From the NCBI GenBank assembly GCA_964411565.1, contig CAYPLB010000004.1, positions 32,500 to 96,499 on the forward strand: 64,000 nt of DNA, given 5' to 3'. The notes beneath the pieces are model-generated. The model saw only the letters and a list, made by a program, of their open reading frames with translations. It did no database searches and was not told the DNA's origin. Position numbers and translations under genes: made by a program. How positions within the stretch are numbered: the stretch's first letter is position 1; each line of letters begins with the position of its first letter. Source of the stretch: Candidatus Woesearchaeota archaeon. GTDB taxonomy: Archaea > Nanobdellota > Nanobdellia > SCGC-AAA011-G17 > GW2011-AR17. This document shows positions 21,904-59,728 of the stretch, piece by piece.

Positions 21904-24900
21904 ATGGTATCACATGTAAAAAAAAGAGATGGAAGTATTATTCTTTTTAACAAAGAAAGAATAGCAGAAGCAATATTCAGTGCTATGAAAGCAACTGGAG
22001 TAGGCAATAAAGAAATGGCAAAAGAACTTGCACAGAAAGTTGCAAGAATAGTAGAAGAAAGAAATCCTTATCAAATTCCTTCAGTCGAAGATATTCAAGA
22101 TTGTATTGAAGATGTGTTAATAAAAGAAGGTGAACAAGGAATAGCAAAAGCCTTTATTATTTATAGAGAAAATAGAAGAAGAGAAAGAGAAAGTAAGAAA
22201 GTTCTTCTAGATGTTGAAGGTACTATGAAAGAATATCTTGATCAAATTGATTGGAGAGTAAATGAAAATAGTAATGTTGGTTTTTCTCTTGGTGGTTTGA
22301 TTTTATATATATCTGGAAAAATTACAGCTAATTATTGGTTGAATAATATTTATCCTGCTGAAATAAAAAATGCACATGTTAATGGAGATTTTCACTTACA
22401 TGATTTGAGTATGTTTAGCGGATATTCATTTTATAGAAATGAAGTTATTGTAGTTAGAGATAAGAAAACAAAAAGTCCATTAGTATTAAGTTTTGAACAA
22501 TTATATAAGTTAACTCAATCTAAAGTTGATCATGAAAATGGGTTTGAGATTAAGTATACAAATGAATATGAGATATTTGATGAAAAAGGTTGGACAGATC
22601 TTAAAAGAGTTCTTAGACATAAAACAACAAAACCATTAATTTCATTGAACACTTTTAATGGGAAAAACTTAGTTGTGACAAATGATCATCCTTTTATTAC
22701 ATTAGAAGATGAAAAACAAATTATTTCCTGTCCTGGATGTGAAGGAAATAATGTTATAAAGAATAGAACAAATAAAATTGGAAAAGATTATTTTAAGTGT
22801 AAATCTTGTGAACAAAGGTTTGGTTTAGATAAAGAAACTTTGCCAAATTTGAGTAAAAGAAAAGAGATAAAAGCAGAGGAAGTAAAATTAACTAACTATG
22901 CATTAACTCCTGCATTTGAAATTGAACAAAATTTTAAAGATAATTTAAGTGTAGAAGATGGATGGTTTGTAGGACTTTTTATTGCTGAAGGATATTTTAA
23001 AGATAAAAATTTAGTTTTTGAAATGTCAGATAGTAGAGAATTTAGAAAGTTAGTGAATTATTTAGTTTATTCTGAAGTAGATTTTAACTTGAATAGTAAT
23101 AAAAGTAATTCAGGAATGCAAATGATTCAAGAAGGGAATAATATCTTGTACATAAAAACTATTTCTTTATCTGAAGAGTTACAAGAGATAATATCACAAA
23201 TAAGACCTTATGCATATAATAAAAATTTGCCAATGAATATGTTAAGTATTAAGTCAGAAGTTATCGGAGCAATGATCTCAGGAGTAATTGACGGAGATGG
23301 AGTAATTAGAAATGATGACCCATGGGTTTCAAGAGCTAATTTAAGGATGACTTCAAAAACTCTTTTAAGTCAAATTCAATTTTGGTTAGAATTAGAAGGA
23401 ATAAATTCTTCTTTGTTAACTATTGATGGATATGGAGAAAGAGAATATAAAGGACTAATAATAAAACCAAGTAAACAACTATATTCATTAACATTCTATA
23501 TTCCTGAAAGAAAAAAGAAATTATTTACAGAATGTTTGAAGATAGATAGTAGTTTTAAATATTCTAAAAGAGATTCATATAAACTTAAATCTCATTCACA
23601 TTTTAGAAAGATTGAAGCTATCGAAAATGATGATGAATATGTCTATGATATTACAACTGAAACAAGAACTTTTAATTGTAATGGAATGTTAGCTCATAAT
23701 TGTGCGGGCTGGTCATTAAGACAACTCTTAGAAGAAGGTTTTGGAGGAGTTTATGGAAAATTACAAACAAAACAACCAAAACATTTTGATACAGTAATTG
23801 GACAAATGGTTAACTTCTTAGGTACTATGCAGAATGAATGGGCAGGAGCACAAGCTTTGTCATCTGTTGATACTTATCTTGCTCCTTATGTAAGAGTAGA
23901 TAATATGACTTACAAACAAGTTAAACAACAAATGCAAAGACTGCTTTTTAACATAGCTACACCTAGTAGATGGGGAACACAAACACCATTTATTAATTTT
24001 ACATTTGATTGGACAGTTCCTGAAGATATGAGAGAAGAAAAAGTAATAATTGCTGGACAAAGACAAGAATCAAAATATAAAGATTATCAAAAAGAAATGG
24101 ATATGATCAATAGAGCTTTTATGGAATGTATGATGGAAGGAGATGCTGATGGAAGAATATTTACATTCCCAATTCCTACATATAACATTACAAAAGATTT
24201 TGATTGGGATAGTGAAAATTCAAACATGTTATTTGAAATGACATCAAAATATGGTATCCCTTATTTCCAAAATTTTGTTAATAGTGAATTGAAACCGACA
24301 GATGTAAGAAGTATGTGTTGTAGATTGCAATTAGATGTTAGAGAACTGAGAAATAAAACTGGAGGATTGTTTGGTTCAGGAGAAAATACAGGATCTATTG
24401 GAGTTGTTACAATTAATCTTCCAAGATTAGGAGAAGTAAGCAAAAGTAGAGAAGAATTCTTTAGAAGATTAGGAATACTTATGGATATGGGGAAAAATTC
24501 TTTAGAAATTAAAAGAAAAGTTGTTACAAGATATATGGAATATGGATTGTTGCCATTCACAAAAAGATATCTAGAAAACTTAGACCACCATTTTTCAACA
24601 ATAGGATTAATTGGAATGAATGAATGTTGTTTGAATTTCTTGAAAAAAGATATGATTGAAAAAGAAGGAAGAGATTTTGCAATTGAAGTCTTAGATTTTA
24701 TGAGATCAAAATTACAACAATACCAAGAAGAAACTGGACATATTTACAATTTAGAAGCTACCCCAGGAGAAGGTACTAGTTATAGATTAGCTAGAATCGA
24801 TAAGATGAAATATCCAAATATTATTACAGCTGGAGATGAAGAACCATATTATACAAATAGTTCACAACTTCCAGTAAATGCAACAGATGATATTTTTGAA

Positions 24901-54387: not shown

Positions 54388-55800
54388 ATGAGAAAAAAAT
54401 CAATAATATCAATAAAAGAAGAAGATTATATAATCAAAGTTAATCAAAATTTTCTCAATAATTTAATTGAATCTGCAATAGCAAAAACAGGTAAAGTTTC
54501 AAAATTAAGTGAAATATTGATAAAAATATATAAACTTAAGAGATATGATCAAAAAAGTTTGTCAGATAATTTAAGAAAATGGCAAAAAAATAGAGATATA
54601 GGCTTAAATTATTATTTGGTAATTGGAGATTTTCTTCAGGAAGAGAAAAATAAGTTATATTCAAAGATTAATTATGTTAAATTAAGACAAACTAGAAATG
54701 GCTTAAAATTAAAATTTCCTTTTGAAATTACTCCTGATTGGTGTTATTTATCTGAAGCTATAAAAGTTGAAGGCACATTAAATCGAAAAAGAGTAATATT
54801 TGAGAATACTGATACAGCATTAACTAAGAAAGTAAAAGAAAAATTGATTAATATAGGGATTGAAAAAGAAAAAATAAGAGAAAGTTTACATATCCGAATT
54901 CAAGTTCCAAAAAAATTTGAAGATAAAAATTTAAAAATTTTTAATGAGATTAATAAAAAAAAGGTAAATAATTTTTATTCTCGAATATTAAAGTTAAAAA
55001 GAGGAAATAAAAAATCAATTATTTTTTCTTTAAGTCATTTTGAGTATAATAAAAAATTAACTTTTAAGGTTTATCATAAAAATAAGTTTTTACTTCAAAA
55101 TGATATATTTATTCCAAAACAAGGGAAAATATTGTTTTTCAACTCTCTAAAAGATGAGAGATATAAGAAAGGATGTGTATCATTAAGGATAGAAGTTGGA
55201 AATAAAACATTATCTTATATTTTGAATGATTTTTTTAAAATTCCTTATGGAAAGAAAACGAGATCAATATATATTCCAACAAAAATTAAAGAACTTAACA
55301 AAGATTGTCTTAGAAATTTAATTTCAATAGTTATTGATTCAGAAGCAGGATTTTCAAATAATATGGCTATTTGTTCTCTTAGTAAAAAATATCTTTTAGA
55401 TTTTCAAGAAATATTATTGAGATTCAATATTACTTCTAAAATTTCTGGAAACTTATTAAAGATTTATGGAAAGAGAAATTTAATCAAAATAAAAGAGAAT
55501 TTTGAGATTTTTTCAAAAAATAAGGCTGATAAATTAGAACAATTAATAGTAAAAGGAGATAAATCTCCTAAAGGAATGTCTTTGTCTTTATATTTGCAGA
55601 GTTTGAATAAACTAAAAGTTGCAACTTGGATAGAAATTAGAAATAATGCTAATAGATCAGGTAATAGTTCAAGAAAATATAGAGATAAACTCCTAGAAAA
55701 AAAGCTAATAAGAGAGGTAAAATTAAAAAGACCTAGGACTTATGAGATAACTAAGCAAGGACAAAACTTTTTAAATGAGAACGAAATTTACTGGTTATAA
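54388..55800 (+). CDS. Free-standing LAGLIDADG endonuclease-like protein with C-terminal wHTH
   Basis: YLSEAIKVEG and LISIVIDSEAG LAGLIDADG-like helices, IPYGKK, C-terminal YEITKQG wing; very Lys/Asn-rich. Confidence 0.7.
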   Translation: MRKKSIISIKEEDYIIKVNQNFLNNLIESAIAKTGKVSKLSEILIKIYKLKRYDQKSLSDNLRKWQKNRDIGLNYYLVIGDFLQEEKNKLYSKINYVKLRQTRNGLKLKFPFEITPDWCYLSEAIKVEGTLNRKRVIFENTDTALTKKVKEKLINIGIEKEKIRESLHIRIQVPKKFEDKNLKIFNEINKKKVNNFYSRILKLKRGNKKSIIFSLSHFEYNKKLTFKVYHKNKFLLQNDIFIPKQGKILFFNSLKDERYKKGCVSLRIEVGNKTLSYILNDFFKIPYGKKTRSIYIPTKIKELNKDCLRNLISIVIDSEAGFSNNMAICSLSKKYLLDFQEILLRFNITSKISGNLLKIYGKRNLIKIKENFEIFSKNKADKLEQLIVKGDKSPKGMSLSLYLQSLNKLKVATWIEIRNNANRSGNSSRKYRDKLLEKKLIREVKLKRPRTYEITKQGQNFLNENEIYWL

Positions 55801-58237: not shown

Positions 58238-59728
58238 ATGGCTGAAAAAACCAAAGAAAAACAGAAATTGAAAAGATTTGTTAGGAATCTTGAAAAGATT
58301 AGAGGTAGACATACTGAATTAGTTTCTGTTTATGTGCCAGCAGGTTATGATCTAAATAAAATTATTCAACATTTACAACAAGAACAAGGAACAGCTTCTA
58401 ATATTAAAGATAAAACAACTCAAACCCATGTTGTTGATTCGTTAGAAAAAATGATTAGACATTTGAGAACTTTTAAGAAAACTCCAAAAAATGGTTTAGC
58501 TCTTTTTTCAGGAAATGTTTCTGATAGAGAAGGAAAGACAGATATCCAAGTTTTTAGTATTGAGCCACCACAACCAATGAAAATGAGATTGTATAGGTGT
58601 GATCAAAGATTTGTTCTTGATGAATTAAAAGGAATGTTTGAAATTAAAGAATGTTATGGAATTATTGTACTTGATAAAAGAGATGCTGATGTAGGATTAC
58701 TAAAAGGAACAACTATTATTGAATTGAAAAGTATGCATTCAGCTGTACCTGGAAAAACTAAAGCTGGAGGACAATGTTTGCATCCAGAAAGTTCTGTACA
58801 TTTGGCTGATGGACAATATATTCCTATTGAAGAGATTCAAGAAGGAGATGAAGTTATAAGTTATGATTTTAATACACAAGAACTGAGTAGTTCAAAAGTT
58901 TTGAAGAAATGGGAAGAGAAAAAAAATAAGTTGTATAAAATTACAGCTGGAGAAAGTGTTATTGTTAGTTCAGGAGATCATATCTTTTTCTTAAGTGATA
59001 AAAAAGAAATTGCTGCTGAAGAATTAAAAGAAGGAATGGAATTGTTTAATGAAAAAGGTTTGGGTGTTGTTATTCAAAGTATTATTGTAGAAGAAAAAGA
59101 GATACCTTTAATTGATATTGAAGTTGAAAAAAAGAATTTTGTTGTTGAAGGAATTGTTGTTCATAATTCAGCTCAAAGGTTTGCAAGAATAAGAGAAGAA
59201 GCAGCAAAAGATTTTTTTGGAAGAGTTAGTGATGCAGCAAATAAAGCATTTTTAGGTCTGAAAGATATGAAAGGAATATTAGTTGGTGGACCAGGAATGA
59301 CAAAGAATACATTTGTTGATAAAGGACATCTTAATGAGCAATTAAAAAGAAAAGTAATTTCGGTACAAGATTTAAGTTATACTGGAAGTTTTGGAATGCA
59401 AGAATTAGTTGAGAAAAGTAGTGATATTTTAGCAGATGAAGCAATTGTTACAGAAAGAAAAATAATGTCAGAATTTTTTAGATTATTATCTCAAGAAGGA
59501 AATAAAGTTGCTTATGGTGAATCTGAAGTTGATAAGGCTCTAGAAATGGGAGCAGTTGATAAATTGTTGTTATCTGAATCTCTAGATGATGAAATGATTG
59601 AAAGATACGAAGATAAAGCAGAAGAGACTGGAGCTGAAGTTGTAATTGTTAGTACTGATACTTCAGAAGGTGCACAATTAAAAGATATTGGCAGAATTGC
59701 TGCTATTTTGAGATTTGCAATTAGTTAA
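58238..59728 (+). CDS. prf1: Archaeal peptide chain release factor 1, intein-containing
   Basis: RGRHTELVS, TASNIKD (NIKS-like), YRCD, GKTKAGGQ|SAQRF. Confidence 0.95.
   Translation: MAEKTKEKQKLKRFVRNLEKIRGRHTELVSVYVPAGYDLNKIIQHLQQEQGTASNIKDKTTQTHVVDSLEKMIRHLRTFKKTPKNGLALFSGNVSDREGKTDIQVFSIEPPQPMKMRLYRCDQRFVLDELKGMFEIKECYGIIVLDKRDADVGLLKGTTIIELKSMHSAVPGKTKAGGQCLHPESSVHLADGQYIPIEEIQEGDEVISYDFNTQELSSSKVLKKWEEKKNKLYKITAGESVIVSSGDHIFFLSDKKEIAAEELKEGMELFNEKGLGVVIQSIIVEEKEIPLIDIEVEKKNFVVEGIVVHNSAQRFARIREEAAKDFFGRVSDAANKAFLGLKDMKGILVGGPGMTKNTFVDKGHLNEQLKRKVISVQDLSYTGSFGMQELVEKSSDILADEAIVTERKIMSEFFRLLSQEGNKVAYGESEVDKALEMGAVDKLLLSESLDDEMIERYEDKAEETGAEVVIVSTDTSEGAQLKDIGRIAAILRFAIS
58775..59167 (+). 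mobile_element. Mini-intein (131 aa, no endonuclease) in aRF1
   Basis: CLHPESSVHLADG (block A), SGDHIF (block B), LIDIEV (block F), GIVVHN followed by Ser. Confidence 0.93.

Follow-up and report, generated by a model that had tools for sequence, protein, structure and literature searches.

The gene for the archaeal release factor aRF1 located in the window, i.e., in the 64,000-nucleotide stretch of DNA analysed here (C4:32500–96499 of the 1.0-Mb, 19-contig genome G000, the estimated completeness of which is 100%), is interrupted in frame, exactly between the Gln and the Ser of the catalytic motif GGQS, by a class-1 mini-intein of 131 amino acids. The presence of a mini-intein directly after the GGQ had been claimed by an earlier, sequence-only reading of the window and is borne out by profile matches, by the splicing residues, by the break in the match to the host profile and by the existence of empty orthologues. 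Very probably, this insert is a fixed, vertically inherited and constitutively splicing selfish mini-intein residing in the aRF1 of one Woesearchaeota/Nanoarchaeota (DPANN) clade; it would thus be an ordinary, long-resident selfish element, common in related archaea.

Anatomy and predicted fold of the interrupted aRF1

The open reading frame (58238–59728, stop codon included, on the + strand like all the features of the gene given below) encodes a precursor of 496 amino acids (55.7 kDa). Its identity as aRF1 is established by the aRF1 equivalog profile TIGR03676, which matches the whole protein with 394.5 bits (cut-off 234.7 bits), by Pfam matches to all three eRF1 domains (eRF1_1, eRF1_2 at residues 310–400 and eRF1_3 at residues 403–495) and by the motifs NIKD, YRCDQRF and GGQ. 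The N-extein (179 aa; 58238–58774), equivalent to model positions 1–174, comprises domain N, which carries NIKD and YRCDQRF, and the first part of domain M up to the GGQ, whereas the remainder of domain M and domain C belong to the C-extein (186 aa; 59168–59725). The GGQ codons gga gga caa can be read directly at 58766–58774; the corresponding residues G177, G178 and Q179 do not vary among 49 aligned sequences (homologues 52–88% identical overall) and the Gln constitutes the −1 residue of the intein. When the genome was searched in six frames, the match to TIGR03676 was found to halt at model position 174 (window 58777) and to restart at this same model position at window 59168, where the C-extein begins. 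The motif of domain N, at 58397–58408, is NIKD instead of the textbook NIKS, and the consensus of the relatives is likewise NIKD.

The intein proper (393 nt; 131 aa, 14.8 kDa) occupies positions 58775–59167, and the protein reads PGKTKAGGQ/CLHPESSV...NFVVEGIVVHN/SAQRFARIREE across it, the N-terminal junction being SAVPGKTKAGGQ/CLHPESSVHLADGQ with the splice between the two. The span 58766–59170, originally assigned to the intein, was right as to location and too wide as to extent, since it covers also the GGQ and the Ser. Taken alone, the insert matches PF14890 (Intein_splicing, 48.7 bits), PT-HINT (49.4), TIGR01445 (29.3) and TIGR01443 (16.6, with a cut-off of 15.6), all above the respective cut-offs, and a profile search of its 131 amino acids yielded no match to LAGLIDADG, HNH or any other nuclease family. 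The insert is therefore a genuine class-1 mini-intein without a homing endonuclease, and the initial description of an element of 131 amino acids, near-minimal in size and lacking an endonuclease, stands.

Residue conservation, as read from the alignment of 49 sequences and from a set of 108 mini-inteins, points in the same direction. In the former, the positions of the insert that never vary coincide exactly with the residues of class-1 splicing, namely Cys1, Ser66, His69, Asp114, His130-Asn131 and Ser+1, and the same splicing residues are invariant in the 108 mini-inteins. Cys1 of block A (58775–58777), the first nucleophile, is conserved in 49/49 and 108/108 cases; block B (S66-G-D68-H69; 58970–58981) is of the TxxH type with Ser in place of Thr, S66 and H69 being invariant and D68 being present in 96% of the 108 sequences; Asp114 of block F (59114–59116) and His130-Asn131 of block G (59162–59167), whose terminal Asn is the residue for succinimide formation, are invariant in both sets. 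The second nucleophile is Ser+1 (Ser311 of the precursor; 59168–59170), invariant in the 49 sequences, which is at the same time the Ser of the host GGQS. As to the endonuclease, its position can be located by aligning the mini-intein with large inteins: runs of 348 and 30 gap columns follow residues 95 and 98, respectively, so that the loop G95-L-G-V98 (59057–59068) marks the place taken by LAGLIDADG in the large alleles.

Splicing performed in silico yields a product of 365 amino acids (40.9 kDa) that reads AGGQSAQRFARIRE, and orthologues that are naturally free of intein read AGGQSAARFSRLRE or AGGQSAQRYSRLRE, i.e., GGQSA(A/Q)RF at the same place. The junction peptides of the precursor are AGGQCLHPESS... 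and NFVVEGIVVHNSAQR, and that of the ligated protein is AGGQSAQR. Cys1 is the sole Cys of the intein, the other Cys residues of the precursor (121 and 139) being both in domain N. The base composition of the intein (28.2% GC, 13.0% at third codon positions) is host-like when compared to that of the exteins (30–32% and 10–12%, respectively).

The six-frame search identified a single aRF1 above the TIGR03676 cut-off in the genome, in addition to one weak Pelota-like paralogue (45.9 bits), and a profile search for the bacterial release factor domain PF00472 found none in this genome. Thus, the genome has no class-I release factor gene besides that of aRF1. As to other inteins, PF14890 matches occur in eight open frames of the 1.0-Mb genome (contigs C1, C2, C3 and C11, and the window); the identified hosts are MCM, RadA, GyrA, a HerA-like ATPase carrying two inteins, NrdD (window 22561–23700) and aRF1, while the other two intein-bearing frames encode a Lon/Mg-chelatase-like AAA protein and a 1297-aa ATPase-like protein.

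The structure of the aRF1 precursor, modelled by AlphaFold2 using the 49-homologue alignment, has a mean predicted local distance difference test (pLDDT) score of 87.4, with values of ~88–95 in the insert (residues 180–310); only the two junction loops (171–177 and 312–318) fall below 50 and are disordered in the model. A Foldseek comparison of the model matched the exteins with the archaeal aRF1 structures 4af1, 3agk and 3vmf_B (E 1e-32 to 1e-29) and the insert with solved HINT domains (TM 0.82–0.89). The insert is thus predicted with confidence to have a HINT fold, and in the model the intein is a globule that separates GGQ from Ser and caps the tip of domain M.

Among solved structures, the nearest chains by sequence (phmmer against PDB) are 2lwy (E 1.2e-9) and the Spl DnaX mini-intein 7cfv (E 4.7e-5), the likeness to the latter being by sequence alone. 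The HINT fold is shared with gp41-1 (6riz; TM 0.89, 31% identity), Npu DnaB (4o1r) and the Ssp DnaB mini-intein (6frh), with root-mean-square deviations (rmsd) of 2.0–2.5 Å. In common with these three and with 7cfv, the aRF1 intein has a size of ~125–150 amino acids, no endonuclease, Cys1, the block B His, the terminal His-Asn and a +1 nucleophile supplied by the host; it differs from them in that its host is a termination factor, its site is the GGQ/S catalytic loop, its block B is SxDH instead of TxxH and its splicing is predicted, the sequence identity being 23–31%. The best sequence match, 2lwy, is a BIL domain of Clostridium thermocellum, whose TM of 0.89 is tied with that of gp41-1 and whose rmsd (1.4 Å) is the lowest. 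BIL domains belong to proteins that are variable and not conserved, and typically have no +1 nucleophile. Unlike 2lwy, the aRF1 intein interrupts a universally conserved motif, is followed by Ser+1 and occurs at a site where both empty and endonuclease-bearing alleles exist, and for these reasons the insert is expected to behave as a true intein and not as a BIL domain.

With regard to the host, the closest parallel is offered by the inteins of archaeal aIF2/IF-2 (COG0532), listed among the translation-factor inteins by Novikova et al. (2016, PMC4760082); also in that case the host is an essential archaeal translation factor interrupted at a conserved functional site, with the difference that aIF2/IF-2 is a P-loop GTPase, a class of hosts enriched in this survey, whereas aRF1 is no NTPase. 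A further comparison is offered by the LAGLIDADG-bearing aRF1 inteins of other DPANN (e.g., P0103, P0117 and the G023 allele), found in the same host gene at the same site (GGQ/C...HN/S); these are 420–505 aa long, contain a LAGLIDADG_3 domain within ~290–375 extra residues inserted between intein residues 95 and 98, and have splicing domains ~35% identical to those of the mini lineage.

Alleles at the GGQ site and their descent

The occurrence of the intein was followed in several samples. A cluster search (5.8 billion proteins at the 90% identity level), the figures of which rest on the 120 best clusters, found an intein at GGQ/C...HN/S in 120/120 of them; 114 are mini-inteins (124–138 aa) and 6 are LAGLIDADG forms (420–504 aa), the nearest named proteins belonging to “Nanoarchaeota archaeon”, “archaeon GW2011_AR17” and “Candidatus Woesearchaeota archaeon”. 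When the large intein of P0103 was used as the query at least 287 clusters matched, and the best 120, those listed, are aRF1 without exception; NCBI names among the matching clusters include Woesearchaeota, Nanoarchaeota, Aenigmatarchaeota and Diapherotrites, and some of these clusters bear the automatic JGI label “eRF1/intein/homing endonuclease”. Thus, the search for same-site and endonuclease-containing alleles that the sequence-only reading had proposed returned hundreds of alleles, mini and endonuclease-bearing taken together, in public data, and the circumstance which it had regarded as detracting from the novelty of the finding, namely that the allele be already widespread, turns out to be real.

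Among 41 related genomes, the 25 belonging to the same family as the window comprise 19 mini, 5 empty and 1 endonuclease-bearing alleles and none without a match, and the 16 of the other families of the order comprise no mini, 11 empty and 3 endonuclease-bearing alleles and 2 without a match. Empty and endonuclease-bearing alleles are found even within one genus. An even sample of 401 genomes drawn across the phylum gave 31 with a match to the intein at E ≤ 1e-10, ~20 of which represent mini alleles of aRF1 spread over several families, and among the 50%-identity representatives of 15 billion proteins the mini, large and empty aRF1 genes are interleaved. The coexistence in relatives of empty, endonuclease-bearing and mini alleles at one and the same site is as expected for a homing cycle. 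The two genomes of the order without an aRF1 match at E ≤ 1e-20 are G027 and G035, the latter estimated to be 97% complete; their aRF1 may be very divergent, heavily interrupted or unassembled.

Some alleles display additional features. Many of the endonuclease-bearing ones (P0105, P0148–P0250; ~860–920 aa) contain an XRE-type helix-turn-helix (PF01381, HTH_3) ahead of the LAGLIDADG, and this is the reason why NCBI names some aRF1 alleles “helix-turn-helix domain-containing protein”. A second aRF1 intein site lies directly before the Cys of the decoding motif YxCxxxF (YLYM/CLSP...VHN/CDDHY); it is occupied in P0338 (1187 aa) and P0325 (1452 aa), each of which has also a large intein at the GGQ site of the same gene.

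In the tree built with the exteins the window falls in a well-supported clade of 48 clusters, 48/48 of which carry the mini-intein; elsewhere in the tree the mini, large and empty conditions are scattered among one another, and the changes of state total 12. In the tree of the splicing domains, which took in 7 endonuclease-bearing inteins, these are split from the mini-inteins on one branch having 99% support, and this separation, together with the ~35% identity, indicates that two lineages of inteins share the GGQ site of aRF1. Within the mini lineage the identities of intein and extein are correlated (r = 0.76, 5778 pairs), so that mainly vertical descent of this lineage is indicated. The ratio of nonsynonymous to synonymous substitutions (dN/dS), computed over eight pairs, is 0.19–0.27 for the intein and 0.04–0.17 for the exteins; judging from these ratios the intein is under purifying selection, a constraint that is expected if every copy must splice.

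Two simpler histories fail to account for these results. Recent acquisition of the mini-intein is ruled out by its host-like overall and third-position GC content and by the fact that the intein tracks the host gene, while its derivation by recent deletion from one of the sampled endonuclease inteins is unsupported, given the branch with a support of 99 and the ~35% identity; the mini and endonuclease forms may have an older common origin. An exchange between the two lineages is hinted at by P0075 (mini) and P0103 (LAGLIDADG), whose exteins are 95% identical and whose inteins belong to different lineages, with the last 20 intein residues being almost identical (19/20), a pattern which suggests recombination or co-conversion between alleles.

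To what extent is all this new? Full-text literature searches turned up no account of an intein interrupting either aRF1 or eRF1. Of the core components of translation Novikova et al. (2016, PMC4760082) write that they “contain few inteins”, in agreement with the initial statement that a translation factor is a less usual intein host, and neither release factors nor aRF1 are mentioned in the main text of their survey. What is new, therefore, is the host, aRF1, and its GGQ/S site for an element of known type, the sequences being public and partly auto-annotated. A termination factor, hit at its catalytic loop, hence joins the list of the intein hosts and fits the rule whereby inteins settle at those functional sites of essential proteins that are conserved best. 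Furthermore, a single order of uncultured archaea displays at the GGQ site the whole life cycle of an intein, with empty, endonuclease-bearing and mini alleles, in addition to a dead stand-alone derivative (see below), and this makes the site a good natural data set for the study of intein evolution. Being small (131 residues), endowed with Ser+1, predicted to splice in cis and derived from a probably mesophilic source, the intein is also a candidate for protein engineering, although many such inteins exist. Finally, there is a consequence for annotation: in many cases these aRF1 genes go under the names “hypothetical”, “polymorphic toxin-type HINT domain” or “LAGLIDADG endonuclease”, so that the only release factor of the cell is hidden.

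Predicted splicing, possible regulation and possible mobility

In the explanation that we favor, the endonuclease would have been lost, or never have been present, and the intein would now be a fixed passenger. Following translation of the 55.7-kDa precursor, the Hint domain is expected to fold and to carry out the four standard class-1 steps, in which Cys1 would perform an N–S acyl shift at the Gln(−1)–Cys1 bond, the hydroxyl of Ser+1 would accept the N-extein by trans-esterification, cyclisation of Asn131 would free the 14.8-kDa intein and an O–N shift would generate a normal peptide bond, giving rise to the 365-aa, 40.9-kDa aRF1 with its catalytic loop GGQSAQRF intact. The unspliced precursor would retain the domain that reads the stop codon and carry a globule of 131 residues at the tip bound for the peptidyl-transferase center; thus, we infer that it is inactive until spliced. 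Since aRF1 is the sole release factor, all termination would have to depend on the spliced product, and the claim that a functional aRF1 requires splicing agrees with the gene content of the genome, in which mature aRF1 could be produced in no other way. Splicing is most likely fast and constitutive, as argued by the clade-wide fixation of the intein in organisms whose only release factor depends on it. Its persistence in spite of the lack of an endonuclease would be due to the fact that only a base-exact deletion is tolerated in an essential catalytic loop, and not to a benefit for the host.

A few points weigh against this explanation. That every member of the family splices is deduced from sequence; the Thr found in block B of most inteins is replaced by Ser, a substitution that is unlikely to be a defect in view of its invariance in the family; the junction context is Gln(−1)/Ser+1 and the kinetics of splicing can at most be predicted from it; the sequence is compatible with a modulation of splicing by the conditions; and the descent of the mini-intein from a sampled endonuclease form is unsupported, the seven of them lying apart on one well-supported branch.

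The alternative that survives best, even if we consider it unlikely, is that splicing is conditional, with temperature, redox state, salt or other conditions gating the supply of active aRF1 and, in a variant of this hypothesis, with the unspliced precursor being perhaps used as a factor that binds the stop codon and is dead for hydrolysis. An insert located at the catalytic tip of the cell's sole release factor would suit such a function, and so would the clade-wide retention, under purifying selection, of an intein without endonuclease; however, an intein that is purely selfish and interrupts an essential gene is expected to be retained and constrained just as much, sister lineages thrive with empty alleles (5/25 genomes of the family), and withholding the sole release factor would be very costly. 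Mutants of eRF1 affected in the GGQ are dominant-negative, so that an effect of the precursor is conceivable. There is also the precedent of other archaeal inteins inserted at catalytic sites whose splicing is documented to be conditional, e.g., that of Pyrococcus RadA (Topilina et al. 2015, cited in PMC4760082), which counts in favor of a switch, yet no sequence feature of a known switch is recognizable here. In fact, the intein contains no Cys besides Cys1 and the +1 residue is Ser, so that no disulfide trap is possible within the intein; a regulatory Cys pair capable of trapping Cys1 is absent from it, position 65, which is Cys in 45/108 relatives, is Ser in this case, and no extra Cys is conserved. 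A redox trap is accordingly rejected for the allele of the window, and the potential conditional-splicing switch envisaged by the sequence-only reading gains nothing from a sequence whose catalytic residues are canonical and invariant, which has no Cys pair and which is fixed throughout the clade.

Somewhat less probable still is the more specific proposal that the intein owes its retention to a role as post-translational gate of termination, through which stress would slow down splicing and cause the precursor to accumulate. If this were true, a precursor having intact domains for binding the stop codon and aEF1-alpha and a blocked GGQ tip would be an “AAQ”-type dominant-negative factor, ribosomes would be stalled at stop codons genome-wide, and the gate could represent a dormancy switch in host-dependent DPANN cells.

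Compared to a constitutively splicing, immobile passenger, an intein that is still mobile is very improbable. In this hypothesis the mini-intein would be mobilised in trans by the free-standing double-LAGLIDADG gene located 3 kb upstream (54388–55800, + strand), whose second LAGLIDADG half is slightly nearer to the endonucleases of the aRF1 inteins than to those of the other inteins of the genome (30% across 143 aa, with an E of 8e-5 obtained against a database of small size and uneven composition). The likeness is nevertheless only at the family level (PF14528, 24 bits), and the gene is missing from each of the other 18 genomes of the family that have a mini-intein, among them both the carriers of the intein belonging to the same genus, a homologue being found in one genome of another family only. 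The intein has no endonuclease in cis, and in the relatives its presence is not accompanied by that of the nearby free LAGLIDADG gene; the helper is thus rejected on account of both family-level similarity and absence from the other mini-intein genomes. The open reading frame at 54388–55800, which is upstream of valS, is sporadic, being present in 1/40 relatives (G035, 43% identity) and absent from the rest of its own genus, and hence represents an independent mobile or orphan gene and no partner of the aRF1 intein.

Equally improbable is a degenerate, non-splicing insert, i.e., a tolerated dead Hint relic or an aRF1 pseudogene: inactivation does occur in the family, where dead stand-alone derivatives of the same intein exist in another genus, but in these C1, the His of block B, the Asp of block F and HN are gone, whereas the copy of the window keeps them all, invariant in 108 relatives, within an intact open reading frame that is under purifying selection and is the sole aRF1 of a genome estimated to be 100% complete, and a globule of 131 amino acids between GGQ and Ser would, to judge from the aRF1/eRF1 structures, hardly fit into the peptidyl-transferase center.

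Stand-alone derivatives and aRF1 without the catalytic Gln

The dead derivatives are found in genus g16 of the same family, in which a stand-alone gene of 131 amino acids derived from the aRF1 mini-intein adjoins aRF1. In L041 (2966–3361, + strand; genome G289) it lies 46 nt downstream of an intein-free aRF1, in L039 (3296–3691, + strand; G017) 1.7 kb downstream of another empty aRF1 and in L040 (2137–2532, − strand; G023) ~5 kb from an aRF1 that bears the endonuclease form. The stand-alone copy is colinear with the mini-intein except for the starting Met and one gap of a single residue, and all of its splicing residues are lost (C1 → A, block B H → Q, block F D → A/T, HN → SE/NE). Eleven protein clusters, ten of 131 aa and one of 146 aa, are 55–100% identical to the query copy, and the dN/dS is ~0.2–0.3; by these sequence properties the stand-alone copy looks like a domesticated intein.

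A different anomaly concerns the GGQ itself. In Aenigmatarchaeota (loci L042–L157, genomes G418–G538) the sole aRF1 is often without the catalytic Gln: in 106 species genomes the motif is GGQ in 41, GGW in 42, GGM in 20, GGY in 2 and GGF in 1, and reparsing of the full-length genes of this group revealed one further aRF1 with GGA. A search for the bacterial release factor domain PF00472 found none in 24/24 Aenigmatarchaeota genomes tested. The variants without Gln cluster on the tree (3 changes between Q and non-Q over 96 rows), and in 52/57 of their genes a Gln is present two residues further on, giving rise to GGxSQ, which is the motif given for the VLRF1 families (Burroughs and Aravind, PMC6514570). 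The intein of the GGQ site occurs also in Gln-less aRF1 genes, where the junctions read GGW/C...HN/SQ.

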